From sequence record NC_073087.1: DNA of 44,825 bases. The stretch is one strand, 5' to 3'. Shown in pieces: positions 3,939-44,602 of this stretch. Under the pieces are notes generated by a model. That model was given only the letters and a program-made list of their open reading frames with translations, was not told the origin of the DNA and ran no database searches. The stretch is from Escherichia phage Gluttony_ev152. Made by a program: the position numbers and the translations under genes. Numbering within the stretch: position 1 is the first letter of the stretch; each line of letters opens with the position of its first letter.

Positions 3939-5359
3939 TTGCGCGCCTTTTTAGCTTTCATGTATTCCATCAAGTCGTCCTGTATATCTTGCTTACTGTC
4001 GCGACGCTCGGCGACCAATTCGTCCAGTGTCCCGCGCGCCTGGATAATGTAGACGAATACCGGTCGAGGGTGTCCGGCCTGCATCTGGCGAACCGGCCCG
4101 ATACGTTCAACGATCTGCGAAAAGTGCTCAAAGTTCCAGGTATCGGAGAAGATTGCCAGGTGATGTCCGCCGTCCTGCAAGTTAAGGCCGTGGCCTGCCG
4201 ATGCCGGGTGTGCAAACATGATGGGGATCTCGCCTCTGTTCCACGCTTCCATATCCTTATTGCCCTGCTTACCCTTACCCAACGCGACGCCGTGCGGAAA
4301 TTTCTTCTTAAGACGTGCCAGGTCATGCTTATACTGATACGCAACGAGCAACGGCGCGCCGTTCAACTCCTCCACGATACTTTCCAGCGCGTCCAGTTTG
4401 GCGTCGTGAATCTTCACCCACTCGTCGGTCCTTTCGCCGTCTTCGTCCACCTTATACACAGCGCCGGAAGCAAGCTGAAGGCACTTAATTGTCTTAGATG
4501 CCGCGTTCGCCGCTTCCACTGTTCCGCTTTCCAGTTCGGCGAATAGCTCCGCTTCGAACTGGTCATAAATCTTGCGGGCTTTCTTCGGCAGGTCCACAAC
4601 AACAGGCGTATAGATTGGCTTGTCGCACCCGAAGTATTCAGCCGCGTCAACGGTGAGGGATACATCTGACAGACGTTGTTGTATTTCTTTCTCGGAGTTC
4701 TTTAGCGGGGCGTGCTGCATAGTGAAGCTGCCAGGCTTAACCGGCTTGCTAATGAACCAGCGATCGGTAAATGCCTTATAGCTACTGCCGAGGCGTTCGC
4801 CACCGTCGACAAACCACGTCTGACCCCATAAGTCTTTAAGCCCGTTTGGCGCTGGTGTGCCGGTAAGGTTAATCCAGCGCTTGACGTGTTTATGTGCAAT
4901 CGCTGCCAGTGCGCGGGCGCGCTTGCTCCCCTGCTTGCTACGATAGCCTTTCAGCTTAGTCGATTCATCGGCAACAACGACCGTAAAGGGCCACGCATCG
5001 CCGTAATAGTCGACCAGCCACTCAACCACATCGTAGTTAACACAAACCACGTTAGCGTCGCTCTCAAGCGCGGCAATACGGTACTTCTCCGGTCCGGTGC
5101 CGTCTACGACCAGCAGGGATGAGAACCGCCATTTCTCCTGTTCCGGGGGCCATGTACCCGACGCAACACGCAGCGGGGCCAGCACCAGTACGCGGTCCTC
5201 ATGATGGGACAGGACGCCAGTCTGGAACATTTTATTCAGCGCCCACATTGTCGCGCCGGTTTTACCGGATCCCATTGTCGCCCAGATATTACATCGCTTA
5301 TGCTTGAGGATGAACGCGGTTATCAACTTCTGATATTCGCGGCGTCGGAATCTTGCCAT
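3935..5359 (-). CDS. SNF2-family (DEAD/DEAH-like) helicase
   Basis: Walker A GSGKTG, DExx-type VVADEST, LTGTPAPN motif typical of SNF2 helicases; start set at internal ATG (M31 of track ORF) abutting upstream stop. Confidence 0.8.
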   Translation of the reverse strand: MARFRRREYQKLITAFILKHKRCNIWATMGSGKTGATMWALNKMFQTGVLSHHEDRVLVLAPLRVASGTWPPEQEKWRFSSLLVVDGTGPEKYRIAALESDANVVCVNYDVVEWLVDYYGDAWPFTVVVADESTKLKGYRSKQGSKRARALAAIAHKHVKRWINLTGTPAPNGLKDLWGQTWFVDGGERLGSSYKAFTDRWFISKPVKPGSFTMQHAPLKNSEKEIQQRLSDVSLTVDAAEYFGCDKPIYTPVVVDLPKKARKIYDQFEAELFAELESGTVEAANAASKTIKCLQLASGAVYKVDEDGERTDEWVKIHDAKLDALESIVEELNGAPLLVAYQYKHDLARLKKKFPHGVALGKGKQGNKDMEAWNRGEIPIMFAHPASAGHGLNLQDGGHHLAIFSDTWNFEHFSQIVERIGPVRQMQAGHPRPVFVYIIQARGTLDELVAERRDSKQDIQDDLMEYMKAKKARK

Positions 5360-5363
5360 GTCG

Positions 5364-5582
5364 TTATTCCGCCTTTTTCCAGACTTCGGTTTCACTGTTC
5401 CAGTTCCTTTTTGTAGCGTCGTAGTTGGTGGCGTGTCCGATGTGCACACCGGTAGCCCGGAAGCTCTTAAATTTTTGCCAGCACACCGTCAACGGCAGCG
5501 GATCATTCATGCCCGCGATAAACCATACGCGATCGCCCGGTTTACATTCGCCCAGCTTGGTGAGTCGGTAATGTTCTTTCAT
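5364..5582 (-). CDS. hypothetical protein
   Basis: Track ORF 5364..5597 begins at a TTG; ATG at 5582 has GGGAGA 7 nt upstream. Confidence 0.45.
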   Translation of the reverse strand: MKEHYRLTKLGECKPGDRVWFIAGMNDPLPLTVCWQKFKSFRATGVHIGHATNYDATKRNWNSETEVWKKAE

Positions 5583-5625
5583 CGTCATGTCTCCCAAAAA
5601 TGGCGGGACAAGCCCGCCGTATTAA

Positions 5626-5799
5626 TTATTTTTGTTCTGCACGGTAGCGGCGCTGCCGTTCGCGCTCTTTCTTATTGCGGCACGATTTGCACTCTGCCCG
5701 ATACCCGTCTGGACTGCGCGCAGTCTTACCGGTGTATTTGTGGAACTGGGATAGCGGCTTTACACAGCCGCAATTACTACAACGTTTTTCTTCAATCAT
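5626..5799 (-). CDS. small zinc-ribbon protein
   Basis: CSNCGC ... CKSCRN (two CxxC pairs) in a 57-aa product starting at internal ATG with AGGA RBS. Confidence 0.45.
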   Translation of the reverse strand: MIEEKRCSNCGCVKPLSQFHKYTGKTARSPDGYRAECKSCRNKKERERQRRYRAEQK

Positions 5800-5839
5800 C
5801 TCTAAAATCCTCGATGTGGCTAACCGGCACACTATACCG

Positions 5840-6118
5840 CTATGCGACCAATTCAGCAACCAATAAATCGCAGTCGGATATGTTGTCGATAACGCGAACG
5901 TCAGCACCGCGGCGGGCCATTCGATCATGTTCACGTACCTGGTGCGGCTTAGGTTTTCCTCCGGGGCGCTTCACTTCGACGAACACTATTTTGCCGTTGA
6001 TGATAATAATCAGGTCGGGCGCACCCGCGCGCCCCTCCCATGCCAGTTTTCGGCAGAATCCGCCGACCTCTTTCACCCGTTTCATCAGGTGACTTTGAAT
6101 CTTGCCTTCTGGTGTCAT
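5840..6118 (-). CDS. VRR-NUC domain nuclease
   Basis: PDLIIIINGKIVFVEVKRPGG fits the PD-(D/E)XK VRR-NUC signature; ATG overlaps the polymerase stop (TAATG). Confidence 0.65.
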   Translation of the reverse strand: MTPEGKIQSHLMKRVKEVGGFCRKLAWEGRAGAPDLIIIINGKIVFVEVKRPGGKPKPHQVREHDRMARRGADVRVIDNISDCDLLVAELVA

Positions 6119-8409
6119 TACTTCCTGTACCTGTACATGATGTCGCCTTCGGCGGCAAGTGGGAAGCCCTTCGCCCAAATAGGCAGGTCGCACATCAGCG
6201 CGCAAAGCTCCTCGGTCGTGTAGTCGTCAGTATCCGGCACTTCGGTGATCAATTCATCATGCACCGACAGGACGATTTTATACCCCGCAGCTTCAACGCC
6301 AGGCATGGACCACGCGAGAATATCGCGACACAACGCCTGTACGATGTTCTCCGTCAGTTTGCCGCCGTAGGTATACTGGAATCCCCACTGGCGCGTCGTC
6401 TGATTCTCGCCCTGATATTTAATGCGTGTGCTGGTGCGCTTCTTGCCGGTGTCTTCGTCAATCTCGGTAGTGACAGACAGCGCGATGCCGGGGTAGCTCA
6501 TGATGCGCCCCGACGGCAACTCAATTTTCAACCACCACCCCGCGGCGTCCGGGTCGTCGCGCTCCTCGTCGAAGGTTGGGTCGTGCTTCGCCTTCGTACG
6601 GACAATCTTGAGCGCTTTTCTACCGTCCGGGCGAACGTTCGCGCCAGCCCAGTATGCTTTGCCAGGATTGCGGATTGCACACAACACCGCGTCCTCAAGC
6701 TCGGCCCAAAAGGCTACCGTCTTCGGGTGCGCCTCACGCCACATACGTTTGATTGCGTCACAAGTAAGCCATACGTTTTTCGGCAGTATGTATGTTGGGC
6801 GCTCGTCTTTCTTACCTGGCTTCGGCGGGCGTTTCGCTTCGTTAATGCGGGCGTACTCATAGCCGCGTTTCGCCGCCGCCCAAATGTGATCCGGGAACGT
6901 GCCTTTCATCACGTCCGCCATAGTGTAAAGGTCGAGGCCCAGGTTTTTAGCGAACTGCAAGAACGCCGCGACGCCGCCACCATAGCCCAGTCCCAATTCG
7001 CACGCCTTACCAATCTGGCGTAAGTCCTTGCGGTTGGCTTTAATGTAATCCGGGTCGAGGCCGAACATCTTACCGGCAGTCTCGCAATAGATATCGCGAC
7101 CGGCCTTAAAGACCATTAACGCTGTTTTCTCGCCAGCGATCCAGGCAAGGCCGCGCCCTTCCACGTTGGAGTAGTCAGCTACGACAAACTTCTTGCCCTT
7201 TGCAGGGATGATGCACCCGCGAACGGTCGAGGCTGTCAGCTTCGATATGTCATACGCCCAGTGCGCTTTCCCACGTAACAGGGAGTTGATTCCGTTGGTG
7301 AGCATGTGCGACCGGACCCAAAAAGCGACGTCGCTCTCGCCTTCGCGGCGCTTAATCTTCCCTTCGTGGTCGTCGCTGTACTCGCCGCGTGCCAGGTTTT
7401 GAGGTTGAAAGCCTTTACCGGCCCAGCGTAGCGTGCGCTTTGCCCCACCATACTGAAGACAACCACGGCGGCGACCATCGGCGGACAGGCCATTGACAAG
7501 CGGATTGTATTTAGTAGATGCCGTTGATGACGCACCGAGGCGCATTTCGATAAGCGCTTTGCCCTCGTCCGGGAAGTCCGGGTCTTCCAGTAGGTCGTTT
7601 AGCGTGGATTTCTGCGCGTTGTGTATCGTGAATGCTGGCGCAATATCACGCAGGATTGGCAGGAAGTCATTGCCGGTCAGCTTACCGCCAAACCGCTCCC
7701 AGGCTTCTTCCTTCAATTCTTCCTTATGCGCCTGCACCGCTTTGATCGCGGCGTTCGCCAGGTCAACGTCAACGTAGAAGCCGCGGTCGTTAATCAACTG
7801 GTCGATGAGCAGGATTTCATCTTCCTTTGGTGAGTTGCCCCAGTCCGGTATGCGCCAGTAGACTTCACGCATGGCAACAATATCCAGCGCGGCATAGCGC
7901 AAGAATTTGGCCCATTCTTCGGGGTGCGTCTCGCGTGTGTAGCGGCGGATTTTGTAGGTCTTAGGGGTGGGCTTACAGAATCGTTTAATCAGCGCCTTGC
8001 CTGCCTTATCCTTCGCGTGCTCTGCGTCAACGCCCAGCACCTGGCACTGCATATCGAGGCTACCGGGCAGCGCGTGGCGAAAGGCCATAATCATGGTGTC
8101 TTCGATCTGGCTTACCGGCAGGTCAATACCCCACTTCTCGCGAATAACCAGGCGGTCAAACAGTAGGCCGTTAGCCATCACGATTTTTGCTTTCTTGCGG
8201 GATACATGGCGGAGCGCTTTGCGCAGTTCACGCGGCATTGTGGGGGATTCAGTGCAATCCCATGTCTGCACGCGGCCCTCGTCGATGGCGTATGTGCAAA
8301 TCATAATCTCGGTGGTTGGGTGCTCTGCGTAGGCGTACGCCCCAACTTTCTTCAGGTCCACCCCGCTAAATGTCTCGGTGTCGAGAAACAGGCGTTCGAA
8401 GTCTTTCAT
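6118..8409 (-). CDS. DNA polymerase, family A (PolI-like) with 3'-5' exonuclease domain
   Basis: 763-aa ORF; N-terminal LFLDTETF exo motif; C-terminal SVHDELITEV polymerase motif; largest minus-strand gene. Confidence 0.9.
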   Translation of the reverse strand: MKDFERLFLDTETFSGVDLKKVGAYAYAEHPTTEIMICTYAIDEGRVQTWDCTESPTMPRELRKALRHVSRKKAKIVMANGLLFDRLVIREKWGIDLPVSQIEDTMIMAFRHALPGSLDMQCQVLGVDAEHAKDKAGKALIKRFCKPTPKTYKIRRYTRETHPEEWAKFLRYAALDIVAMREVYWRIPDWGNSPKEDEILLIDQLINDRGFYVDVDLANAAIKAVQAHKEELKEEAWERFGGKLTGNDFLPILRDIAPAFTIHNAQKSTLNDLLEDPDFPDEGKALIEMRLGASSTASTKYNPLVNGLSADGRRRGCLQYGGAKRTLRWAGKGFQPQNLARGEYSDDHEGKIKRREGESDVAFWVRSHMLTNGINSLLRGKAHWAYDISKLTASTVRGCIIPAKGKKFVVADYSNVEGRGLAWIAGEKTALMVFKAGRDIYCETAGKMFGLDPDYIKANRKDLRQIGKACELGLGYGGGVAAFLQFAKNLGLDLYTMADVMKGTFPDHIWAAAKRGYEYARINEAKRPPKPGKKDERPTYILPKNVWLTCDAIKRMWREAHPKTVAFWAELEDAVLCAIRNPGKAYWAGANVRPDGRKALKIVRTKAKHDPTFDEERDDPDAAGWWLKIELPSGRIMSYPGIALSVTTEIDEDTGKKRTSTRIKYQGENQTTRQWGFQYTYGGKLTENIVQALCRDILAWSMPGVEAAGYKIVLSVHDELITEVPDTDDYTTEELCALMCDLPIWAKGFPLAAEGDIMYRYRK

Positions 8410-9750: not shown

Positions 9751-11173
9751 TGCTTAAGTCCTCGTCAGTAGCTACAGACCACGCAGGGCGCGGGTCGTCG
9801 ATGGGTGCTAATACCGGTTTAGCTGGTGCGCGCGTGATTTTATCACACAACTTTGCCCACACTTTCGGCTTCTCGTCCTTCAATACCTTCTCGGCATCAG
9901 TAGGGCTGAGTAATGTTTCTTTGTACATAACATCGCGCTTGATCCGGGCCTTCGTGAAGATTTCAATCACTTCGCTTTCGTCCGCCCACTTGCGGATCCC
10001 TTCCTTACCGGCAACCATTTTGAGGCCCAGCGATTCGCCATCGCCAGCCATAACCGCCTTGAATACCGCGGACTCGATAGCCTTGATGTGCTGGCGCATT
10101 GCGTCTAAACCTTCATACGCCTTGCGCAGTTCCGCGGCAGTCATAGCGCCGGAGGCCGCTTCTTTCTTGCCACGCTTCGCACGTCGTGCCGCTTTGCGGG
10201 CTTCGCGGGCCATATTGCGGTCATGATTGGCGCATTCTTCCTCTGTCGCAATACTCACGTCGTCGCCCAGGTCTTCGTCTGTTGCCGTTGGTTGGGTCAT
10301 CGTGTCGATTGCGGCCTTAGCGCGGGCGCTACACTGATCCGCAAATCTGCACCACTGACACGCATCAACGCTCGGTCGGAAGTCGGCACGGGTGAGTCCC
10401 TTTTTGCCGCGGGCGTACGCTTCCAGGGCGGCGATAGCACGCTTGGACGCAAACTTCGCGAATATCTCCAGGGCTTCTACCGAAATATCCCACTCCGACG
10501 CCCCGCCGCAATACGGCTGGAAGATAACCAGGCGCACGGTCGTGATGTCGTACATGGATTGCAGCTTGCGCAGCAGGCCGAGCGCATACAGCATAAGCTG
10601 TTTGTTTTCTTTCGCCTCGACCTTATGCCGCCCCGTCTTCAGGTCGCCAACAATCAGCATGTACGTGCCGTCGGTCTTCTTCATGACCATGACCATATCC
10701 GCAGTGCCGAACGTCTTAACCCGGTTGCCGTCGATCTCGAAGCCAGAGTGTAGGACGCGGGTCAGATCGGCGCGCATCTCAAGCTGAACAAACTCCGCCA
10801 CTTCGAGGAGCGGTCGCCAGTGGTCGATGTACGCGTCGCACTGTTTCACCATGTCGTCGTTGACCAGTACGCCGCCTTTCGGCGCTTTCGGGTGCGCCTT
10901 TACCGGCCCCTTACCTTCGTTCTCGACGTAACACCCTTTGTACGTCTTAGCGGTTATCAGCTTCTCACCGGCGATAATACGGTTTAGCACGACTTCAGAT
11001 ACGGTGTGCATACTCGTACCGTTAATCGCCGCTTGCCCGGATTCGTTCGGGATACCCTGTTCTACCACCAGGGCGGCGGGGCAACCCATCCATTTTTTAG
11101 CACCGGATGGCCCGAGTAATGAATGTTCCGTATTGCTACCGGATTGCGTTTTACGTTTTGGTTTAATCGCCAT
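9743..11173 (-). CDS. PD-(D/E)XK nuclease, Cas4/DUF2800-like
   Basis: 476 aa; cysteine cluster CQWCRFADQC typical of Cas4/RecB-family Fe-S nucleases; conserved neighbourhood with SSB and polymerase. Confidence 0.7.
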   Translation of the reverse strand: MAIKPKRKTQSGSNTEHSLLGPSGAKKWMGCPAALVVEQGIPNESGQAAINGTSMHTVSEVVLNRIIAGEKLITAKTYKGCYVENEGKGPVKAHPKAPKGGVLVNDDMVKQCDAYIDHWRPLLEVAEFVQLEMRADLTRVLHSGFEIDGNRVKTFGTADMVMVMKKTDGTYMLIVGDLKTGRHKVEAKENKQLMLYALGLLRKLQSMYDITTVRLVIFQPYCGGASEWDISVEALEIFAKFASKRAIAALEAYARGKKGLTRADFRPSVDACQWCRFADQCSARAKAAIDTMTQPTATDEDLGDDVSIATEEECANHDRNMAREARKAARRAKRGKKEAASGAMTAAELRKAYEGLDAMRQHIKAIESAVFKAVMAGDGESLGLKMVAGKEGIRKWADESEVIEIFTKARIKRDVMYKETLLSPTDAEKVLKDEKPKVWAKLCDKITRAPAKPVLAPIDDPRPAWSVATDEDLSNE

Positions 11174-11361
11174 TATTCCACCCTTGAAAACTGAGCAATG
11201 TAATAATCATGTTCAACATTGGCCCGCTTAGCGGCATTGTTCATGGTAGCCGCCAGTCCTCGAGCTTGCATCCAGCAGCAATTCCAGTTTTGATTCATAA
11301 TAATTTCTGGTTGCTCGTCGCCGGTAATACGGCAACGAAATAAAACAAAGAAGATAGCCAT
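11173..11361 (-). CDS. hypothetical protein (62 aa)
   Basis: Track ORF in operon context; weak. Confidence 0.35.
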   Translation of the reverse strand: MAIFFVLFRCRITGDEQPEIIMNQNWNCCWMQARGLAATMNNAAKRANVEHDYYIAQFSRVE

Positions 11362-11613
11362 TTATTTTGTCTCCCAGCGGTCAATTGTTCTTGCTTCGGA
11401 TGCAACTGCGAAGCGAACATATTCCAGATTGGAATCCGCCCAAATATAAAAGTCGGGATTAGTAAAGGTGGTGCGCTTGATTTGCGCGGGTGTATTGCGG
11501 CGTTTATCTATTACGGCAACTCGCGACTGAAAGCTGCCGATGCGTTCGAATAGCCAATAATAAGGGCGTTGGTCGCGTGAATCCACCGCCTCGATTAGCG
11601 TGAAGCGTGCCAT
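11362..11613 (-). CDS. hypothetical protein (83 aa)
   Basis: Track ORF directly following terminator-flanked repeat protein gene. Confidence 0.5.
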   Translation of the reverse strand: MARFTLIEAVDSRDQRPYYWLFERIGSFQSRVAVIDKRRNTPAQIKRTTFTNPDFYIWADSNLEYVRFAVASEARTIDRWETK

Positions 11614-11625
11614 TGTCTCGTCCTC

Positions 11626-11654
11626 TAAAAAGAGGCCCGCTAATCTGCGGGCCG
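11626..11654 (-). terminator. intrinsic terminator (minus strand)
   Basis: Forward AAAAAGAGGCCCGCTAATCTGCGGGCC; hairpin plus T-run on minus strand after gene ending 11662. Confidence 0.55.
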
Positions 11655-11661
11655 GAATATA

Positions 11662-12180
11662 TTAATCTTCCAGTTCGAAATAGGTTTCGACGATTTCTTT
11701 TAGCTCTTTGTGGAAGTCTTCGACGTCGTCATCTTCCAGCTTGGCGATTGATTTGATCTCGAACGATTCCAGCAGGTCGTCGAATTCGTCGTTCGCATCG
11801 TCGTCGTCACCACCGGCGATAATCGCGGCATACTGTTTGATCTCGTCGCGCATCTCTGCCAGCGGATCGGCATCTTTCTTACCTTTGCCTTTCGCCGGTG
11901 CTTTTTTAGACTTAGCCGGTTTTTCGTCTTCGGCGTCTTCGTCGTCGTCATCTTCTACGACTTCTTTTTTGGCCTTACCCTTCGCCGGTGCTTTTTTAGC
12001 TTTAGCCGGTTTTTCGTCTTCGGCGTCATCGTCGTCATCTTCGACAACTTCTTTTTTGGCCTTAGACGGCTTCTTGTCTTCCTGTTTACCAACGGCAGCG
12101 CCAACGGTTTCATAATGTTTAGCGATGGTTTCCAGTGCTACTACGCCGCGAGTGATCAGGTTTACGATTTGCTCAAACAT
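11662..12180 (-). CDS. acidic/basic charge-block repeat protein
   Basis: ATG at 12180 with GGAGATATACC upstream; two tandem 31-aa repeats KKEVVEDDDDDAEDEKPAKAKKAPAKGKAKK; first gene after the leftward promoter. Confidence 0.6.
   Translation of the reverse strand: MFEQIVNLITRGVVALETIAKHYETVGAAVGKQEDKKPSKAKKEVVEDDDDDAEDEKPAKAKKAPAKGKAKKEVVEDDDDEDAEDEKPAKSKKAPAKGKGKKDADPLAEMRDEIKQYAAIIAGGDDDDANDEFDDLLESFEIKSIAKLEDDDVEDFHKELKEIVETYFELED
11880..12070 (-). repeat. tandem repeat of about 93 nt in charge-block protein gene
   Basis: Two near-identical units (CCTTCGCCGGTGCTTTTTTAG...TTCTTTTTTGGCC), each encoding one 31-aa repeat. Confidence 0.6.
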
Positions 12181-23733: not shown

Positions 23734-24820
23734 TCAAGATATGGCGGATCGAATGATTCGCCGTCACATCTTCACCCAGCGCCTGAGCAATGACCAGGCG
23801 CGAAGGGTGCTGGCTATGTGGGAGAAGTTCCGGCCCGCTTTACTGGGTAAGCTGACCGAGTTACTTGATGGTAAAAAGTCCATGAGCAACAAGGCACTTA
23901 CCACACTTTTAACGCAACTCGACAAGACCGTCAAAACGGAACTGCGCACCGAGTTTAAGGCGCTGGCTGAAAGCCTTCAGGAGTTCGCCGACACCGAGGC
24001 TGATTATCTCGCCGACACATTAACGGCAGCGATCCAGCCAGCGGTCGCCGTACCAGCGGTTGAGGTGGTGAGCGTAGTGACGGGCGCGCAGATTGCAGCG
24101 ACGGCAATGAAAAACCCGTTCCAGGGGAACACCATGATGCAATGGCCTGATTCACTTTCCGAGTGGACCAGGACGCAGATCGGCAATCAGGTGCGCGCCG
24201 GATTCATCCAGGGCAAGCCAACGATGGAAATTATTGCGGACGTGAGGCGCGCGCTAGGCGGTCGTAGTGCGCAAGCAATCTCAAGCGTTGTTAAGTCCGC
24301 GGTCAACCACTATGCGGCGACCGCCCGCGAATTAATGGTAAAAGCTAATGACGATATTCTCGAAGGTCGCCAATGGTTGGCCACATTGGACACGCACACT
24401 TCTCCCATGTGCCAGCTACGCGACCGCCTGTTCTATCCGGTTGATGTTACTCCCGCGACAAAAGGGAAGCGCGGCGGGAAAGTGGTGGCTGGATCACAAT
24501 ATGGCGCTGGTCCTGGCAAGCTGCATTATTGCTGCCGTTCTACGGAGACGTGGAAAGTCAAAGGCATGGAAGATTGGCCCAGTGGTAAGCGTCCGGCACT
24601 GAAGGCTGACGCAGGCAGATTGCTGAGTGAGCAGGTCGACGCGCAGACTGATTTCTTCTCATGGGTGCAGCGCCAGCCGCGCCATATCCTGGAAGAATTA
24701 TATGGAGTGCAACGCGCCGACCAGATTATGCGCGGCATGAAAGTGCCGAAGATGTTCACCGATTCTGGCGAACTGATGACTATTGCACAGCTTAAAAACC
24801 GGGGGTTATGGCGTGATTAA
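23717..24820 (+). CDS. head morphogenesis protein (SPP1 gp7 / Mu F-like)
   Basis: 367 aa directly after portal, overlapping it; typical position and size of minor capsid/head morphogenesis protein. Confidence 0.7.
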   Translation: MAKTINQDMADRMIRRHIFTQRLSNDQARRVLAMWEKFRPALLGKLTELLDGKKSMSNKALTTLLTQLDKTVKTELRTEFKALAESLQEFADTEADYLADTLTAAIQPAVAVPAVEVVSVVTGAQIAATAMKNPFQGNTMMQWPDSLSEWTRTQIGNQVRAGFIQGKPTMEIIADVRRALGGRSAQAISSVVKSAVNHYAATARELMVKANDDILEGRQWLATLDTHTSPMCQLRDRLFYPVDVTPATKGKRGGKVVAGSQYGAGPGKLHYCCRSTETWKVKGMEDWPSGKRPALKADAGRLLSEQVDAQTDFFSWVQRQPRHILEELYGVQRADQIMRGMKVPKMFTDSGELMTIAQLKNRGLWRD

Positions 24821-25142
24821 ATATGCAGCGATTGGACTGGTTATCGGTCTGGCGGTAGGATTCTGGCTAGGTGACTCCTATCGCGCTGGCGTAGTGGCGG
24901 AGGCGGCGCAAGAAGCGCAAGCCCAAGCCCAACGGCAGCAAACTAAAGTAATCGAGCGCTCCGTGCAGGCAGAACAAGCCCGCGACGTGGAATACCGGAC
25001 TATCACAAAAGAGGTTGTTAAATATGTTACGCGCCCTAACCGCCCTGATTGTAGTTTTGACGCTGAGCGCGTGCGGATCAAGCAGCGTGCCGTTGATGCC
25101 GCTAACGGAGTCGGCACTGCGACCGCCGTGCAAGTTCGATAA
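24783..25142 (+). CDS. i-spanin (Rz-like)
   Basis: N-terminal TM helix AAIGLVIGLAVGFWL followed by QA-rich coiled-coil; completely contains the o-spanin ORF in another frame. Alternative start GTG 24813 with GGGGG RBS. Confidence 0.6.
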   Translation: MHSLKTGGYGVIKYAAIGLVIGLAVGFWLGDSYRAGVVAEAAQEAQAQAQRQQTKVIERSVQAEQARDVEYRTITKEVVKYVTRPNRPDCSFDAERVRIKQRAVDAANGVGTATAVQVR

Positions 25143-25254
25143 CCCGTCTGCGGACCCCGACGAAGATTTGATGATTGACGTGAAAAATATGGAATGCGGG
25201 GCGAAGCTGAGGGCGCAGGTGTTGGAGTTGCAGCAAATAATTAAGGGGCCGTAA
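25015..25254 (+). CDS. o-spanin (Rz1-like outer-membrane lipoprotein)
   Basis: Signal peptide with lipobox LTLSAC, Pro-rich mature part; embedded in +1 frame of i-spanin gene; AGAGG RBS. Confidence 0.6.
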   Translation: MLNMLRALTALIVVLTLSACGSSSVPLMPLTESALRPPCKFDNPSADPDEDLMIDVKNMECGAKLRAQVLELQQIIKGP

Positions 25255-36843: not shown

Positions 36844-37451
36844 CAACGTTTAAATTGTACGGCGTCTTAGGACGTCGATTCGGTAAAGTGCATAAGCTGG
36901 ACTGCTTCACACCGGGCGAAGGAATCACCGGCTTGTGTGTGAAGTTGCCAGGGTTACAAGACTTTTTAATGTCAGCCCACCTGGACAACATGATGTTCAA
37001 AGTGCGCAAGGGCAATCACACCATGACCGGCTACGATGAGCTGGGCGAGTTCCACGGCGACCGCGTAGTGACCATCGCGCCGGTTATGACGGGCGCAAAA
37101 AGCGGACTGGGCCAATTGCTGGCGGGTGTAGCGATCGTGGTGGCGTCGTTCTATACCGGAGGGCTTGCAACTGCCGCTTTCGGAGCTTCAGCGGCTACCG
37201 CGGCCTCTATCGGCGCAGCGACGTTTTCGTTCGGGATGTCGATGGCGCTGGGTGGCGTTATGCAATTGTTATCACCGCAACCGAAAGGATTGCAGACACG
37301 GCAGGACGTGGATAACAAGGCGTCGTACGCGTTCGGCGGGCCGGTGAACACAACCGCGCAAGGCACGGCACTTGGTGTATTATGGGGCGAGCGTGAGATC
37401 GGCGGCGCTATTATTTCCGCCGGAATCGTAACCGAGGACTTGAACGAATGA
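36834..37451 (+). CDS. tail assembly protein I
   Basis: 205 aa with Gly/Ala-rich hydrophobic C-terminal part, overlapping both neighbours; position between K and J. Confidence 0.65.
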   Translation: MAMTTFKLYGVLGRRFGKVHKLDCFTPGEGITGLCVKLPGLQDFLMSAHLDNMMFKVRKGNHTMTGYDELGEFHGDRVVTIAPVMTGAKSGLGQLLAGVAIVVASFYTGGLATAAFGASAATAASIGAATFSFGMSMALGGVMQLLSPQPKGLQTRQDVDNKASYAFGGPVNTTAQGTALGVLWGEREIGGAIISAGIVTEDLNE

Positions 37452-40400
37452 CGATTATCTACGACGTCACGGGCCATAAAGGCGGCGGCGGAAAACAGCA
37501 CACCCCACAGGAGACGCCAGACAGCCTGCATTCGCTGGCTAAAATCCGCATCTTGCTCGCACTGGGCGAAGGGGAGTTCGAAAGTATTACGAGCGCCAGC
37601 GAATTACGGCAGCGCGTCTACCTGGACGGAACACCGATCCAGAACGCCGACCTGTCGGAAAACTTCCCCGGCGCGCGCGTGGAGTTCCGCCCGGGCACAC
37701 AGCACCAGGATGTGATCCACGGATTTTCAGCGGTGGAAAGTGAGCAATCTGTCGGCGTAAAACTGGAAAACGGCACGCCGTGGGTGCGCCAGGTTAACGA
37801 CACCAGTCTTGACGCCGTGCGCATTCGAATCGGCATTCCGGCCCTGTACACTAACGAAGATAATGGCGACCTGGTGGGCGGGCGCATCGACTATAAGATC
37901 GTTGTGTATACGGATAACGCCGACCCGCGTGAGTTCAGATTCGCCGCCGTTGGTAAAACAATGTCGCTATATGAGCGCGACCACCGCATCGAATTACCGC
38001 CGAACGTGAATACCGGCTGGCGAGTGGAGGTGCACCGCATAACGGCAGACTCCACATCGGCGAAAGTGGTTAATGATATCCAGGTGCAATCCATCACTGA
38101 GATTATCGACGCCCGCCTGCGTAACCCGCTAACCGCGCTGTTGTTTGTGGAGTTCGACGCCAAAGCGTTCCAGAACATCCCGCGCGTGTCCATCAAGTGC
38201 AAAGGCCGCAAAGTTCTAATACCGAACAACTACGACCCGATTAATCATACCTATTCCGGGGACTGGGACGGCACGTTTAAACGCGCATGGACGGATAACC
38301 CCGCGTGGCACTGGTACGATATTTGTATTACTGAGCGCTTCGGCCTCGGTCGGCGTATCAAACCGCAAATGTTAAACCGGTACGCGCTCTACCAGATTGC
38401 GCAGCGCTGCGATCAGTTGGTCAGCGACGGCAACGGTGGTCGAGAAATCCGCTTTAAGAATGATATGTACATTCAGTCACAGACGGATGCTTGGACCGTG
38501 CTTAAGGATTTAGCCGCTATCTTTGCCGGTATGACCTGGTGGGGAAATCAGATGTTGAATATCGTCAGTGACCAGCCGGTCGCAGCGGTATCGCACACCA
38601 TCACCAACGCTTCGGTCATTGATGGTCGATTCGACTACGCGTCCGGTAGCCAGAAAACTCGGTATTCCACATTCGCGGTAGCATACGGCAACACGAAGAA
38701 CCACTATGAAGATGCCATTGCTACGGGGCAGCGTGTCGAACTGGTACGCCGCCATAAGATTAACCGTCTGGATATAACGGCGATCGGCTGTACGCGTGAG
38801 TCAGAAGCGCAACGACGTGGGCACTGGGCGCTAATCTCCAACCAGCTTGACCAGCAAGTTAGCTTTAAGGTTGGCATGGAGGGACTTTTCTTTATTCCGG
38901 GTAGCGTAGTCGCGATCGCCGATACAAACATTTCTGGCGGCTTCGAGACACGCGGCGGTCGCCTGTTGCCGGACCCTGGCACGCGTACCGTGCTTAACAC
39001 GGACAGCGAAATCACGTTCCGCCCAGGTGATAAATTCCTGGTACGCACCGATAGCGGTAATGTGGAGACTCGCGAGATCGCCAGCGTCAACGGCAACAAG
39101 GTTACGCTAAAAACCGCACTGGACGCCGACCCGATTCCTGATCAGCCGTTTTGCGTCGATGGCAACGATATCCAGTTGCAGAAGTTCCGCATCACCGACC
39201 TGGAATATGACGACTCTACCAGCACTTTTTCAGTGCGCGGGATCGAGTACAACGATAGCAAATATGATGCCGTTGATAATGGCGCTCGCCTTGATCCGGG
39301 CATCTTTACTCAAGTGCCGGACGGCGTAATGAAGGGGCCGGAGTCCGTGACCATAACCCCGTCGCAGATTTCATCGCAAGGCCAGCTAATCACCAACGTG
39401 GATATTGTTTTCCCGCCGGTTAAGGACGCCGTGGTGTATGAAATCCAGTGGCGACGTACCAGCTTGCAGAATATGGAAATCCAGTGGGGTAACGACTGGG
39501 TGAACATCCCCCGCACGGCATCGAACGGCGCGCACATCCCTAACGTGTTCTCCGGTAACTACCAGGCACGCGTCCGCGCAATCGGTATGGGCGAGATTTC
39601 ATCCCCGTGGGTGTCGTCTGCCATCACGCCGATAGAAGGTCGTCTCGGCGGGCTTAACGCGCCTATCATCACCAACGCGATTTCGGGCCTCCACCAAATT
39701 TTGTGGAAGTGGAACCACAACAACGCCGCGACGGATATTTCGTACACCGAGCTTGAAGTGCGCAAGACCGGTGAAACGGAGTGGAAATTTCTTACCAACG
39801 TCCCATATCCGGGGGCGGAGTATGCGCAAACGTCACTGGAGTTCGGGATCTATCAGCAGTTGCGCGCCCGTGTAGCGGATAAAATCGGCAACCTGTCGGA
39901 CTGGTCGGCCCCGTTTGAAGGGCAGGTGAGTGACAAAGTTGACGAATACATGAAGGGGCTTGATGACGAGTTCTTGACTTCCGAGGACGGTAAACGCTTC
40001 CAGGAAGCGATCGACACCATGCCGCAAGGTATCTATGAGTCTATGCTTACGGACGCCCAGCAGCTATTCAATGCCCGCGCCGAGTATAAAGGGATTTATG
40101 CGGAAATCACGGTGGCGTATAACGTGGCGGCGGACGCGCATAAAGCCGTAGCGCAACTGGAAACGTTGATCGGCACGCGCCTTGATGACGCTGAAGCATC
40201 AATCCACACGTTGCAGACTGCGCAAAGCACACATGAACAAGCGTTCGCCCAGTACCAGCAAACTGTTGCCGCTAAGTTTTCGGGACAGGAAGCCGCCATC
40301 CAGCAGGTACAAACGGCAACGGCGGACGTGGCTGGCGCACTGGCGGAGTATAAGACCCAGGTCGCGGCGCAGTTCGGACAGCAGTCCGCAGCTATCGAGC

Positions 40401-40894
40401 AGAAGATGACGTCTTCGTTTAACCATGCTGGTGGCAGCGCCACGTACAGTCTTAAGGCTGGCGTGACGTATAACGGGACTTACTATGACGCCGGTATGCA
40501 GCTTTCAGTTGTGACGTCTGGCAACGCAGTTAAATCGCGTATTGCGTTCAAAGCCGACCAGTTCTATATCATGCACCCATCTAATGGGTCGCTTTCGTCC
40601 GCGTTTATCGTTGACGGCGGGCAGGTGTATATTGACACGGCACGCATCAAGGACGCGTCAATCAACTTTGCGCAGATCACGGACACGCTGCAATCAAATA
40701 ACTACGCTTCAGGGTCACGCGGCTGGCGTATCCAGAAAGGCGGCGCTGCGGAGTTCAACGAAGTAACGGTCCGCGGCAACCTGTACGCCACATCCGGTAA
40801 CTTCGGATTCTCCGGTGGGACCGTGACGATTGACAAGACAGGAGTAAACGTGCCGTTACCTGGCGGGGGAAGGGTTAAAGTCGGGACGTGGTAA
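37448..40894 (+). CDS. central tail fiber / host specificity protein J
   Basis: 1148 aa; N-terminus HKGGGGKQHTPQETPDSLHS resembles lambda J N-terminus (GKGSSKGHTPREAKDNL); follows M-L-K-I order. Confidence 0.85.
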   Translation: MTIIYDVTGHKGGGGKQHTPQETPDSLHSLAKIRILLALGEGEFESITSASELRQRVYLDGTPIQNADLSENFPGARVEFRPGTQHQDVIHGFSAVESEQSVGVKLENGTPWVRQVNDTSLDAVRIRIGIPALYTNEDNGDLVGGRIDYKIVVYTDNADPREFRFAAVGKTMSLYERDHRIELPPNVNTGWRVEVHRITADSTSAKVVNDIQVQSITEIIDARLRNPLTALLFVEFDAKAFQNIPRVSIKCKGRKVLIPNNYDPINHTYSGDWDGTFKRAWTDNPAWHWYDICITERFGLGRRIKPQMLNRYALYQIAQRCDQLVSDGNGGREIRFKNDMYIQSQTDAWTVLKDLAAIFAGMTWWGNQMLNIVSDQPVAAVSHTITNASVIDGRFDYASGSQKTRYSTFAVAYGNTKNHYEDAIATGQRVELVRRHKINRLDITAIGCTRESEAQRRGHWALISNQLDQQVSFKVGMEGLFFIPGSVVAIADTNISGGFETRGGRLLPDPGTRTVLNTDSEITFRPGDKFLVRTDSGNVETREIASVNGNKVTLKTALDADPIPDQPFCVDGNDIQLQKFRITDLEYDDSTSTFSVRGIEYNDSKYDAVDNGARLDPGIFTQVPDGVMKGPESVTITPSQISSQGQLITNVDIVFPPVKDAVVYEIQWRRTSLQNMEIQWGNDWVNIPRTASNGAHIPNVFSGNYQARVRAIGMGEISSPWVSSAITPIEGRLGGLNAPIITNAISGLHQILWKWNHNNAATDISYTELEVRKTGETEWKFLTNVPYPGAEYAQTSLEFGIYQQLRARVADKIGNLSDWSAPFEGQVSDKVDEYMKGLDDEFLTSEDGKRFQEAIDTMPQGIYESMLTDAQQLFNARAEYKGIYAEITVAYNVAADAHKAVAQLETLIGTRLDDAEASIHTLQTAQSTHEQAFAQYQQTVAAKFSGQEAAIQQVQTATADVAGALAEYKTQVAAQFGQQSAAIEQKMTSSFNHAGGSATYSLKAGVTYNGTYYDAGMQLSVVTSGNAVKSRIAFKADQFYIMHPSNGSLSSAFIVDGGQVYIDTARIKDASINFAQITDTLQSNNYASGSRGWRIQKGGAAEFNEVTVRGNLYATSGNFGFSGGTVTIDKTGVNVPLPGGGRVKVGTW

Positions 40895-40899
40895 ATGCG

Positions 40900-40924
40900 A
40901 TGGGGCCAGATGGCCCCATTTTCA
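40900..40924 (+). terminator. putative terminator between convergent genes
   Basis: GGGGCCAGATGGCCCC followed by ATTTTC; lies between J (+) and minus-strand ORF end. Confidence 0.45.
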
Positions 40925-41887
40925 ATACATATTCGGGATGACGAGTAGCGGTGTTGGTACTGCAATATTTTTACTTGGCATCTGGAATTGCTGCCGTGAG
41001 TAGTTGCCGATGACGCGGTTTTTAGCGACGCGCACATTATTACCCGCCATGCGTATGCCGTTCATGCGGACGTGGTTATAGCCACCGTTGTTCTGAATCA
41101 GTGCGCCGGTGTATGAAAGCTGGATCAGGCTGTTTCCAATATTCTGGTCGCCCGTTCCGATGTTAATAGTGCGGTCATATACGAACGGCTTGTTCACCGT
41201 CGAGAACGTAACCTGATTCTGGTTATTCGTCATGGTGATTCCGGCCCCCGGAGTGGGTGGTGTGTTGTTGAATATCACCAAATCCATGTCCACCGAAGCC
41301 GCCACATCGTCGATGCCTCCATAGGACGCGTTGCGGACGATAATACTGCCGCCATCGAAGCCTACTGATACGTTGCCATCATCCCATCGGGCGAACGGAA
41401 CACCGCCAACCGGCAAGGCCATACTACCGTTGACGCGCACGCGCTGTGCGTATCGGCAGGTCATTAGCTTAGACACGTTGGATATGGCGGTGAAGTCCGT
41501 CGAGTTAGCCACCAGTAAACCTGCGTTGCGCGAACCAACCGGCAGCACTTCCATTATGACGCCCGCCCATTGTGGTAAACCAGAGTACGCGCCATACGCA
41601 TCCTCCCCGCGCAGGGTGATACCACTATTACCGTTGCGAGTAACCGACGTAACGTAAAACGGGTCGGGAATTACCAGGGTCTGGTCAAACACCTCAATCA
41701 CTTCTACCGGGCGAGTGAGCGCGACGATGACCTGCGACCCATCCGTAAGCGGGGTGTTAATGGTTAGCGTCTTGTTGGACTGTGCCCGCTGGTTAAAGCT
41801 GGTGCAGTATGACGGCGCGCGGAGTCCCGCGGTTATCTCCATGCGCGGCCTTCCGTCGTTATAGTCGATAAGTATTCCAGCGCCCAT
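40922..41887 (-). CDS. hypothetical Asn/Gly/Thr-rich protein (beta-helix-like)
   Basis: Reverse-oriented; starts right after the lipoprotein gene stop (ATG 41887 with GGGAG RBS, alternative GTG 41896); repeated N/G/T-rich segments; no signal peptide. Confidence 0.5.
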   Translation of the reverse strand: MGAGILIDYNDGRPRMEITAGLRAPSYCTSFNQRAQSNKTLTINTPLTDGSQVIVALTRPVEVIEVFDQTLVIPDPFYVTSVTRNGNSGITLRGEDAYGAYSGLPQWAGVIMEVLPVGSRNAGLLVANSTDFTAISNVSKLMTCRYAQRVRVNGSMALPVGGVPFARWDDGNVSVGFDGGSIIVRNASYGGIDDVAASVDMDLVIFNNTPPTPGAGITMTNNQNQVTFSTVNKPFVYDRTINIGTGDQNIGNSLIQLSYTGALIQNNGGYNHVRMNGIRMAGNNVRVAKNRVIGNYSRQQFQMPSKNIAVPTPLLVIPNMY

Positions 41888-41889
41888 TA

Positions 41890-42111
41890 TTACCACTCCC
41901 GTGATTTAACTGATACTGTGCCTGAGAAATTGCCGTCGCTATCTGAAGACAGCCCAGTGAATCGCATGTCTACATCTCCTGCCGGTACTTTTTGCCCGTC
42001 AACGTAGCGCAACATGCAGCTACCGTAAGCAACCGTAACGCAATCGCCATTGTTGCGTTCTACGGCGCAACCGGACAAAAGAACCGCACAAATCATAATT
42101 AAAGTTTTCAT
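41890..42111 (-). CDS. small outer-membrane lipoprotein (Cor/Llp-like superinfection-exclusion candidate)
   Basis: 73 aa from internal ATG with AGGGGA RBS; signal peptide MKTLIMICAVLLSGC with lipobox LSGC; reverse-oriented between J and tail fiber genes. Confidence 0.55.
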   Translation of the reverse strand: MKTLIMICAVLLSGCAVERNNGDCVTVAYGSCMLRYVDGQKVPAGDVDMRFTGLSSDSDGNFSGTVSVKSREW

Positions 42112-42190
42112 GGTATCATCCCCTATATTTGGTTGAGTTTTAGTATTACACCGCTCAACCAGGATTGCAACCAATTACGAGGATTTAGCT

Positions 42191-44602
42191 ATGGCAGCGG
42201 GTACGCTATCCGTAACGAACAATAGCAAGGCGGTAGTAGGGGTCGGCACCACGTTTACCGCGTTTAAAGCTGGCGACTTCTTAACGTTGGTGGTAGGACA
42301 AGTCCCATACACCGTGGCAATCGCGTCCATTGAAAGCGCAACCGCGCTTACGCTGGTGCTGCCGTTCGACGGCCCAACGGCAACCGGCCTTGCGTGGGAC
42401 GGCGTTAAGCGCGATACCATGTCACTGGCAACGATGGGCGTTACCGTACAGGCACAGAAAGCGTTGCGATTGATGATCGCAGATGAAAACAACTGGCGCG
42501 CTATCTTCGGCGAAGAAGAAGAAATCTCGGTCACGCTACCGAACGGTCAAGTGGTGCAGGGTATGTCGTGGGGCTACCTGTCAAAACTGCTTAAAGACGT
42601 AGATCCTGTTGAATTGCAGGCTATCGCGGACCAGACCATCACGGCTAAAAACCAGGCGCAAGGATTCCGTAACGAGGCGGAAGGCTTCAAGAACACCGCG
42701 AATACCGCGAAAGATGCCGCAGTAGCTGCGAAGACAGCGGCGGAGACAGCTAAGTCGCAGGCCGTAACCGCTAAAGCGAAGACAGCGGCGGAGACAGCTA
42801 AGTCGCAGGCCGTAACCGCTAAAGACCAGGCCAAAGGATTTCGCGACGAGGCTGAAGGCTTCGCCAACAGCGCGGACGCGTCAAAGAAAGTGCCGTATGC
42901 TGGCGTAACATTACCGGCACCGACTGGAGTAAGGGATATGCTCAAGCGGTTGCGCGATTCGGTTAAGGGCGGCTTCTGGCGCGTCGATGATATTGCGCAG
43001 TTTCCATCTGGCGAGATGACCCCTTTCAGATACGGACCTGGCGTATGTGGCGGCGCGGGGGATACATTCTTTGCAATCAACGTTGACTGGCAAACCTCGC
43101 GCGTTAAAGTTTTCTCGGGAAACAACAACGCGATCAACGGTGCGTCGGGAAGTGTTAGCGCTATCGAACTGGCTAAGCTGGGGGCTAACGGGGACGTGGC
43201 GATCGGGGACGGCGGGACCGGTGCATCGAACGACCAGGGCGCGAGAAAAAACCTTCAGGCAATGCACGAGCGACAGGCATCGTTGGATACTGAAGATCTT
43301 AACGTCCTTCAGGGTGATAAGGCTGGGTTTTATTATCAGTCCCTGTCGGCTAACGCCACCCCCGAACGTAACTATCCTATTAACCAGGCGGGTTGTTTAC
43401 TGGTGCAAAGATCCGGTGCTAACGATCCGAAAAGCTGCATACAAACGTACACCTCATACCTTAACGGTCGGCGCTGGATTCGATGGCTGAGCAACGCGAC
43501 TACTGGCACTTGGTCCCAATGGTACGAATTATATAACGCAGGGTCGTCGCCGACTTTTTCTGGAGTAATTACTGGATCTGCGGTGCGCGCTTCCGTTGAC
43601 GGAAAGATCATAACTATTAAACCTGGCGTCAATGATGTAGTTATTCACAACTCGGCATCTAATAAATTTTTGCAATTAAAGGACGATGGCGGTCTTTCGT
43701 ATGACAACAAGCTGATCGCGTATAACGGCCTTGCCGCCAGTGGCACATTTGCTATGACCGTCCCTAGCATTAAAGTTACAACAGCCAATGGCGGATTTCG
43801 TATCGACGGAACAACGTCGACAAACAACCAGCCACTTCACGTAACAGGCTACAACTCCGCAGGCACGCGTCTTTGGTTTTTAGGGAAGGACACCGGGACG
43901 AACGCGCTATTCCTGAACGATGTTACATCGTCTAAGGTTGAGCTGATCACAGACGGCGTTGTGCTTGGTACAAAGAATTTTGCGGGCAAGGCATACGTCC
44001 AGGCCGCAAGTTTAGAGATCGACCGACCGAGCGGCAAGTATTTCAAAATGCAGAACGACGGCACCTCGTCGCACCCTGCAACCTTCAAATTATGGGGTAA
44101 CGGGTCTGAGAGGGCGTCGGTTATTGAGTGTGGTTTTGATAACGGCCCTGGGTGGGTGTTTTACGCGCAATATAACAGCAACGGCACGCGCCAGATGAAC
44201 GTTAACGGTACGGTAAACTGCACGACGGTAAACCAGTCGTCTGACCGCGAGTTGAAGGATAACATCAAGCCGATCGAGAACGCTCGCGCGGGCCTTGCTA
44301 AGATGGGCGGTTATACCTACACCCTGAAAAAAGACGGTATGCCGTACGCCGGGGTGATTGCACAGGAAGTAATGGACGTTGTGCCGGAAGCGGTGAGCAC
44401 GTTCGAAGACTACGAACACCTTGCGGGGCCAACGCAAGACGGCGAGGAACTGGTAGGGCGTCAGCGCTTCTTCCAGGTGGACTACGGCGCTATTGCGGCG
44501 TACGCGGTGCAAGTGTGTAAAGAACAGGAAGAGGAACTGGTGTCATTACGCAGCGAACTGGAGGAATTAAAAGCTGCCGTAGCGGCACTGACTAAAGCAT
44601 AA
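42191..44602 (+). CDS. tail fiber protein with C-terminal intramolecular chaperone (peptidase S74-like) domain
   Basis: 803 aa; C-terminus SDRELKDNIKPIENA ... GGYTYTLKKDG ... GVIAQEV ... QVDYGAIAAY ... coiled-coil matches the autoproteolytic chaperone domain of endosialidase and T5 L-shaped fiber type; internal 48-nt tandem duplication. Confidence 0.8.
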   Translation: MAAGTLSVTNNSKAVVGVGTTFTAFKAGDFLTLVVGQVPYTVAIASIESATALTLVLPFDGPTATGLAWDGVKRDTMSLATMGVTVQAQKALRLMIADENNWRAIFGEEEEISVTLPNGQVVQGMSWGYLSKLLKDVDPVELQAIADQTITAKNQAQGFRNEAEGFKNTANTAKDAAVAAKTAAETAKSQAVTAKAKTAAETAKSQAVTAKDQAKGFRDEAEGFANSADASKKVPYAGVTLPAPTGVRDMLKRLRDSVKGGFWRVDDIAQFPSGEMTPFRYGPGVCGGAGDTFFAINVDWQTSRVKVFSGNNNAINGASGSVSAIELAKLGANGDVAIGDGGTGASNDQGARKNLQAMHERQASLDTEDLNVLQGDKAGFYYQSLSANATPERNYPINQAGCLLVQRSGANDPKSCIQTYTSYLNGRRWIRWLSNATTGTWSQWYELYNAGSSPTFSGVITGSAVRASVDGKIITIKPGVNDVVIHNSASNKFLQLKDDGGLSYDNKLIAYNGLAASGTFAMTVPSIKVTTANGGFRIDGTTSTNNQPLHVTGYNSAGTRLWFLGKDTGTNALFLNDVTSSKVELITDGVVLGTKNFAGKAYVQAASLEIDRPSGKYFKMQNDGTSSHPATFKLWGNGSERASVIECGFDNGPGWVFYAQYNSNGTRQMNVNGTVNCTTVNQSSDRELKDNIKPIENARAGLAKMGGYTYTLKKDGMPYAGVIAQEVMDVVPEAVSTFEDYEHLAGPTQDGEELVGRQRFFQVDYGAIAAYAVQVCKEQEEELVSLRSELEELKAAVAALTKA
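42730..42825 (+). repeat. 48-nt tandem duplication inside tail fiber gene
   Basis: GAAGACAGCGGCGGAGACAGCTAAGTCGCAGGCCGTAACCGCTAAAG occurs twice back to back, encoding KTAAETAKSQAVTAK twice. Confidence 0.7.

Follow-up and report, generated by a model that had tools for sequence, protein, structure and literature searches.

Directly 3′ of gpJ, Maffei (2021) recognised what were termed 'bona fide RBP loci', which include cognate exclusion genes (PMC8594841). Such receptor-binding protein (RBP) loci are present in Drexlerviridae, Dhillonvirus, Nonagvirus and Seuratvirus (also given as Queuovirinae), and they are hotspots of host-range change (PMC8594841). In the same work LptD was identified as receptor for Bas14, Bas18 and further phages, and a later screen of 255 phages confirms an LptD-specific family at the RBP locus (preprint 10.64898/2026.04.02.716166); both sources propose that a separate RBP docks onto J. 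A FhuA-type allele of Dhillonvirus, the topic of PMC10373560 and PMC12309495, has no bearing on the allele treated here.

The closest described system is that of Oekolampad (Bas18). Spontaneous mutants resistant to this phage map to LptD (PMC12685063; the LptD mapping also in PMC8594841), and the LptD substitutions Y671N and D352Y abolish infection together with RBP binding in vitro (PMC12685063). Dunbar et al. (PNAS 2025, PMC12685063; PDB 9RPT, 9RPW, 9RQI and 9RPS) showed by cryo-EM that recombinant RBP_Oeko (bas18_0025) sits on Shigella LptDE at its extracellular face, the translocon being in an open state previously unseen, with an interface of ~1,700 Å2 and contacts to LptD EL3-5 and EL11. 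The companion lipoprotein SE_Oeko (bas18_0026) could not be expressed; the structure obtained on LptDE, likewise by cryo-EM, is that of Rtp45, a homologue with 35% identity. Rtp45 is bound from the periplasmic side, close to strands 5-8 and with LptE and LptM to either side of it; it carries a Cys30-Cys38 disulfide, its hairpin moves EL4 by up to 20 Å, and the resulting LptD conformation is incompatible with RBP binding (PMC12685063). The text of that paper yielded no assay of exclusion in vivo, either for Rtp45 or for SE_Oeko.

Rtp45 itself comes from Rtp, of the Drexlerviridae, in which rtp43 (J, plus strand) is neighboured by rtp44 (minus strand, DUF6453), preceded in turn by rtp45 (minus strand, PF24052); LptD is the predicted receptor of Rtp. 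Wietzorrek et al. in 2006 reportedly proposed a Cor-like role for Rtp45, without a test. Two further systems, both with FhuA as receptor, follow a similar logic. In T5 the RBP, pb5 (oad), is a monomer that recognises an outer-membrane protein; it is encoded beside Llp, a small periplasm-facing lipoprotein that blocks the receptor, the two genes being divergent. In T1, phi80, N15 and HK022 a small antisense lipoprotein, Cor, annotated as a superinfection exclusion factor, is encoded just 3′ of J-associated RBP genes.

We analysed 44,825 nt of Escherichia phage Gluttony_ev152 (NC_073087.1), a stretch referred to below at its full length as the window. Judged by its nucleotide matches, the source is a Dhillonvirus coliphage of the Oekolampad type. 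A megablast search with positions 40800-42300 as query matched 153 phage records, nearly all of them Escherichia or Shigella Dhillonvirus, with vB_EcoS_SD276 as the top match (97% nucleotide identity) and Oekolampad matching over the full length at 94%. Only 62 of the 153 records reached a query coverage of at least 80%, which fits the allelic replacement already known at the RBP locus. The features of the locus are collected in Table 1. Pfam domains of the J-like protein, which is 98% identical to that of Oekolampad, are FNIII-A_GpJ, Phage-tail_3 and a C-terminal Phage_Tail_Tip.

Table 1. Features of the locus, with positions in the window
Feature	Position	Strand	Remarks
J-like gene	37448-40894	+	Flanks the antisense pair on one side
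PF09327 match in J	40391-40801	+	E 9e-40; presumed RBP docking site
GC-rich hairpin, 9-bp stem, 4-nt loop	40899-40920		Lies in the 27 nt that separate the stop codons of the converging J and RBP genes
RBP gene, 321 aa, DUF6453 family	40922-41887	-	Orthologue of bas18_0025 (RBP_Oeko), homologue of Rtp44; predicted LptD binder
Lipoprotein precursor gene, 73 aa, PF24052	41890-42111	-	Orthologue of bas18_0026 (SE_Oeko); putative superinfection-exclusion factor
Divergent intergenic region, 79 bp	42112-42190	-	Upstream of the lipoprotein gene
Lateral tail fibre gene	42191-44602	+	Flanks the antisense pair on the other side

An earlier reading of the window, made from the sequence only, had noticed two minus-strand ORFs between J and the tail fibre gene, and their coordinates were confirmed. 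Both are genes rather than chance ORFs, since each matches a Pfam family: the product of the larger is a DUF6453 protein (PF20051; 404.3 bits against a cut-off of 25, E 4e-121, profile positions 1-290 of 291), and that of the smaller belongs to PF24052, 'Phage_lipoprotein' (76.6 bits against a cut-off of 27). The pair is the published module of an LptD RBP and an exclusion lipoprotein, already known and ordinary for this phage group. The genes have the order, orientation and 2-nt spacing seen in Oekolampad, where bas18_0025 and bas18_0026, annotated 'hypothetical', lie between genes for a 'J-like tail tip protein' and a 'lateral tail fiber protein', and the intergenic region and terminator hairpin are kept as well. 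The two phages differ at nine positions of the RBP and at a single position of the lipoprotein, and in the lateral fibre, which has 606 aa in Oekolampad and 803 aa, with a Peptidase_S74 chaperone domain (Pfam), in the window. The same gene order and orientation are found in Rtp, EK99P-1, NJ01, PEC9 and Oekolampad. Rtp, although it shares the layout and the predicted receptor, belongs to another phage family, its Rtp44 and Rtp45 are only 33% and 36% identical to the window proteins, its lipoprotein and RBP genes overlap by 1 nt where those of the window are spaced by 2 nt, and its locus is followed by recombination genes instead of a lateral fibre gene.

The larger gene had been read as an ORF of 324 aa. 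That ORF is real, and its mechanical start is GTG 41896, inside the last codons of the lipoprotein gene, but the protein has 321 aa when read from ATG 41887, where the gene begins in the annotation of every relative and where the solved protein has its N-terminus. Between the lipoprotein stop and this ATG, which has GGGAG ahead of it, there are 2 nt (TGG TAA ta ATG), so that the close spacing already remarked upon holds and the coupling of the two genes is tight. The protein is identical to Oekolampad bas18_0025 at 312 of 321 positions (97%), and Gln299, named as an LptD EL4 contact in RBP_Oeko, is among the residues kept. In a PDB sequence search it matched 9rpt_C, 9rpw and 9rqi ('Tail fiber protein') at E 1e-207. 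Its composition (G 10.3%, V 10.0%, N 9.7%, T 7.5%) agrees with the richness in N, G and T that had been noted; no signal peptide was found, as had also been noted, and hydropathy revealed no hydrophobic segment (Kyte-Doolittle maximum 1.22 over 19 residues).

The same reading had suggested beta-helix repeats in this protein, and here the structure prediction disagreed. An AF2 model built from a 28-sequence alignment (pLDDT 89.3, pTM 0.88) is all-beta, with 24 strands of which the longest has 14 residues, and a Foldseek search of the PDB with this model gave 9rpt_C (E 4.5e-36) as its sole match at E <= 0.001. By the model and this match the protein has the RBP_Oeko fold, a different all-beta fold from a beta-helix. 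No Pfam beta-helix family matched the protein, and no tandem repeats were found in the gene. A right-handed beta-helix tailspike or fibre was thus ruled out by the strand lengths, the absent repeats and the RBP_Oeko fold.

Given that the large protein is 97% identical to RBP_Oeko, whose structure was determined in complex with LptDE, we take it to be the phage's own receptor-binding protein rather than an unusual extra in a Cor cassette, and LptD is the predicted terminal receptor of this phage. The gene had earlier been regarded as an unusual companion for a Cor-type cassette, and its product, by implication, as non-structural; an RBP and a lipoprotein 3′ of J are in fact the normal layout, and the identity to RBP_Oeko in effect reassigns the product to the structural tail proteins. 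We found no direct demonstration that RBP_Oeko or the window RBP is present in virions.

The smaller gene runs from ATG 42111 to a stop at 41890 and encodes 73 aa with the N-terminus MKTLIMICAVLLSG/CAVE. The lipobox is L-S-G-C, with Cys15 as anchor residue and Ala at +2; the description of the product as a 73-aa lipoprotein with an LSGC lipobox stands, on the sequence and on the PF24052 profile alike. The precursor is identical to SE_Oeko at 72 of 73 positions (99%), matches phrog_4281 (E 1.6e-33, PHROG), and finds 9rps_D ('Phage lipoprotein') in a PDB sequence search at E 1.5e-8. When it is aligned to Rtp45 (36% identical), Cys15 corresponds to the lipid-anchor Cys20, and Cys24 and Cys32 to the disulfide pair Cys30 and Cys38. 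From this identity, the kept cysteines and the synteny we infer a role in exclusion, and by analogy with Rtp45 the lipoprotein most likely blocks LptD from the periplasmic side.

The likeness to Cor and Llp that had been proposed for this lipoprotein probably holds at the level of function, by way of Rtp45, which leaves LptD unable to bind the RBP, but extends poorly to the sequences, where homology is absent for Llp and marginal for Cor. With T5 Llp only the 15-residue signal peptide aligns, and the two share no Pfam family. The arrangements differ too, in that the window genes are tandem and those of T5 divergent, as do the modes of action described: long-range allostery for Llp and steric displacement for Rtp45 (PMC12685063). 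T1 Cor gave a BLASTP alignment of 28% identity over 53 aa (pairwise E 0.009), scored 17.7 bits on PF24052 (under the cut-off of 27), and was scored at E 0.0027 by a custom HMM of three sequences; phrog_1119 (Cor) matched residues 1-30 only of the window lipoprotein (E 5e-4). The RBP genes of T1 are unrelated to the one in the window and lie on the J strand. The lipoprotein thus belongs to the Rtp45 family and not with Llp, and an unproven kinship with Cor would be very remote at best.

The two genes most likely share one transcript, running from the 79-bp intergenic region to the hairpin that they would have in common with J. We infer this single operon from the 2-nt spacing and from the promoter and hairpin motifs. 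The 79-bp region is almost invariant in an alignment of five Dhillonvirus genomes. It holds a GGGGA Shine-Dalgarno sequence ahead of the lipoprotein gene and, found by eye, a candidate sigma-70-like promoter (TTGCAA at 42170-42165, a spacer of 17 nt, and TGt-AATACT at 42147-42142). The candidate is sub-threshold: a consensus promoter scan of positions 40600-42500 reported no site in this region at a threshold of 9/12. The hairpin folds at -18.0 kcal/mol on the plus strand and -16.5 kcal/mol on the minus strand (z ~ -2.8), and is likely a bidirectional transcription terminator, even though a terminator scan of the same positions left it below the T-run threshold. It is kept in the five Dhillonvirus genomes, and in Rtp a different, equally self-complementary sequence is found in the same place.

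Relatives of the two proteins indicate which of the genes is central to the module. DUF6453 has 116 cluster representatives at E <= 1e-3, including phage contigs of ~60 kb and chromosomes of Citrobacter, Salmonella, E. coli and Trabulsiella. In prophages of the Citrobacter type and of Trabulsiella the DUF6453 gene shares the strand of J and lies 1-3 nt beyond it, as expected for a tail gene, and no Rtp45-like ORF was found at E <= 1 within 5 kb of the prophage DUF6453 genes. One phage contig has an antisense RBP gene between J and a fibre gene with only 125 nt upstream of it, leaving no room for a lipoprotein gene, and here again there was no Rtp45-like ORF near the DUF6453 gene at E <= 1. Since DUF6453 genes persist beside J where the lipoprotein is absent, the RBP is the constant part of the module and the lipoprotein the optional part, the opposite of how the pair had been framed from the sequence alone.

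We estimate at roughly 90% the probability that the cassette is the LptD-specific 'RBP locus' of Dhillonvirus, that is, an RBP together with an LptD-blocking lipoprotein. On this reading the 321-aa DUF6453 protein, having no signal peptide, would be made in the cytoplasm and then join the J-like central fibre, a trimer, at its distal tip. When the phage meets a new host, the protein would insert into the LPS translocon LptDE through its extracellular mouth and contact LptD EL3-5 and EL11 in the open-barrel state, leading to irreversible adsorption and DNA ejection. The lipoprotein would be exported, lipidated at Cys15 and, with Ala at +2, delivered to the outer membrane's inner leaflet, where it would bind LptD from the periplasmic side with its hairpin up the lumen, as Rtp45 does. 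How the lipoprotein would block receptor binding can be read from the structure of Rtp45 at the periplasmic face of LptDE: the hairpin would displace EL4 and RBP binding would be lost, so that infected cells and debris would no longer capture progeny or superinfecting LptD-dependent phages.

The arrangement could also be that of a Cor/Llp-type cassette, in which the large protein, thought to be beta-helix-like, is a co-transcribed, non-structural partner that assists or extends the receptor block. The genes do point the same way, against the tail genes and with 2 nt between them, and the PHROG label of the large protein is 'membrane protein, moron'. We nevertheless consider this very unlikely, given that the large protein is 97% identical to one solved on the extracellular LptDE face, that it has neither a signal peptide nor a transmembrane segment and so cannot reach the envelope from inside, and that relatives retain DUF6453 beside J without any lipoprotein. 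It is hardly more plausible that the nine substitutions relative to RBP_Oeko have retargeted the window RBP away from LptD. RBP loci are hotspots of host-range change, but the LptD assignment holds for RBPs of the Rtp44/Bas01 type at only 33% identity, the cognate lipoprotein and J are 99% and 98% identical to those of Oekolampad, and Gln299 is kept.

Other readings concern the lipoprotein. A small outer-membrane lipoprotein is also what an o-spanin would be, and a lysis component of the Rz1 type was considered and rejected, its probability being close to nil: the protein matches no spanin family in Pfam or PHROG and instead the Rtp45 family, of which a member binds LptDE; no i-spanin partner adjoins its gene; and a lipobox scan of the whole window led to the phage's own overlapping Rz/Rz1 pair elsewhere, at 24783-25254 (genes at 24783-25142 and 25024-25254, with PHROG spanin matches at E 2.6e-36 and 2.5e-26). 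More room is left, if not much, for a lipoprotein that binds LptDE and has a main role other than exclusion of the kind proposed, such as modulation of LPS export or of outer-membrane integrity late in infection, or that excludes other LptD-dependent phages rather than protecting the phage's own progeny. Rtp45 does sit inside the translocon, between LptE and LptM; PMC12685063 yielded no in vivo data on exclusion by Rtp45 or SE_Oeko; and in Kuravirus podophages family members stand alone in the early region, far from the RBP genes. Against this, the consequence seen in the Rtp45 structure is precisely the loss of the conformation that binds the RBP, the lipoprotein gene strictly adjoins its cognate RBP gene in small siphophages, and Llp and Cor provide a precedent. 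We therefore regard such a role as unlikely and retain an RBP locus with an LptD-blocking lipoprotein as the preferred reading.

Searches by tblastn with both window proteins also matched Gordonclarkvirinae/Kuravirus podophages. In SU10, gp18 is the 322-aa 'tail needle' of a cryo-EM study (PMC9509320), and in both SU10 and Bas87 gp18 carries the Phage_Tail_Tip domain of J (91-95 bits) and is directly followed by gp19, a DUF6453 protein of 343 aa (83-89 bits). SU10_0104, in the early region, is a PF24052 lipoprotein (124 bits) that has the motif VPAG[DE]VD[MV]R[FY] in common with the window lipoprotein and Rtp45. The SU10 structure paper (PMC9509320) makes no mention of gp19. Mass spectrometry of SU10 virions detected gp16-18 and gp20-24, leaving gp19 as the sole undetected product in the gp16-gp24 block, which could be because it is present as a single copy per virion. 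These matches suggest an LptD-directed module in podophages. That a DUF6453 RBP, a PF24052 lipoprotein and a J tip domain form a portable LptD-targeting kit beyond siphophages is a tentative proposal, to which we give somewhat less than even odds; if it is true, gp19 would be an overlooked needle-tip RBP and LptD the terminal receptor of Kuravirus podophages. No link between these podophages and LptD was found in the literature searched.

LptD is essential and conserved, so phage proteins that engage it, the RBP from outside and the lipoprotein from inside, would be useful as probes of the LPS translocon. Further uses lie in receptor prediction from genomes, phage engineering and phage steering; these uses have already been published for the orthologue, which is 97-99% identical. 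The practical value for the present phage is a confident annotation, with LptD as predicted terminal receptor and a cognate putative exclusion factor, and its locus adds to the family one more natural variant, with nine substitutions in the RBP.

The exclusion lipoprotein is optional to the DUF6453 receptor-binding protein (RBP) gene, because such genes occur without one. In Citrobacter-type and Trabulsiella prophages, J is followed 1-3 nt downstream on the same strand by a DUF6453 gene, and no Rtp45-like ORF was found within 5 kb of it. One phage contig has an antisense DUF6453 gene between J and the fibre gene, laid out as in the window, with no lipoprotein gene beside it. Cor, the superinfection-exclusion lipoprotein of T1, matches the Rtp45 family weakly and below threshold, with 17.7 bits on PF24052 (residues 3-51) and E 0.0027 against a three-sequence HMM; a very remote kinship between Cor and lipoproteins of the Rtp45 type is possible.

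In the window, J and the RBP gene converge, and a hairpin lies between their stop codons. Its counterpart in Rtp, AAAGCCCC-GAAA-GGGGCTTT, has a completely different stem sequence, yet the hairpin is kept: what is conserved is the structure, not the sequence. The lateral tail fibre gene contains a perfect in-frame 48-bp tandem duplication (42728-42824; 2.0 copies, 100% match) that doubles the 16-aa stretch AKTAAETAKSQAVTAK; the encoded fibre is 803 aa long with a Peptidase_S74 chaperone, whereas that of Oekolampad has 606 aa. The window also encodes an overlapping Rz/Rz1-type spanin pair, whose o-spanin has the lipobox LSA|C; the pair lies inside the structural module, directly after a head-morphogenesis gene.

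Coordinates of the features compared, each in the numbering of its own locus
Feature	Locus	Coordinates	Strand	Evidence
Hairpin between J and RBP stops	window	40899-40920		
Hairpin between J and RBP stops	L005 (Rtp)	about 6727-6748		
Rz/Rz1-type spanin pair	window	24783-25142 and 25024-25254	+	PHROG E 2.6e-36 and 2.5e-26
Cor	L002 (T1, NC_005833)	11624-11851		
DUF6453 gene	L007/L008	5001-5945		
DUF6453 gene	L009/L010	5001-5966		
DUF6453 gene	L011	5001-5966		
gp18 + gp19 region	L016 (SU10, KM044272)	10089-12090		domain matches
gp18 + gp19 region	L015 (Bas87, PQ850594)	4689-6690		domain matches
Rtp45-family lipoprotein	L006 (SU10)	4968-5249		PF24052

The E. coli-type LptD module was found in Dhillonvirus or T1-like genomes labelled as Acinetobacter or Campylobacter phages. 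'Acinetobacter phage NJ01' (OQ221563, L013) has 85% nucleotide identity to the window across the locus, and 'Campylobacter phage A131' is the label of further such matches. These host labels look doubtful.

Counterparts of all three proteins, the RBP, the J tip and the lipoprotein, are encoded by podophages of Kuravirus/Gordonclarkvirinae (SU10, Bas87). The Phage_Tail_Tip domain of J is present in gp18, a 322-aa 'tail needle' (91-95 bits in SU10 and Bas87), and gp19 (343 aa), encoded directly after it, matches DUF6453 at 83-89 bits in both phages and 9rpt_C, the RBP_Oeko chain solved with LptDE, at E 7e-12 (phmmer). The early region of SU10 holds the lipoprotein (124 bits). The text of the SU10 cryo-EM paper does not mention gp19, nor was gp19 among the proteins detected by mass spectrometry of the SU10 virion, and the literature searched held no link between Kuravirus/Gordonclarkvirinae and LptD. 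Together, gp18, gp19 and the lipoprotein may constitute an LptD-binding module that has so far gone unrecognised.
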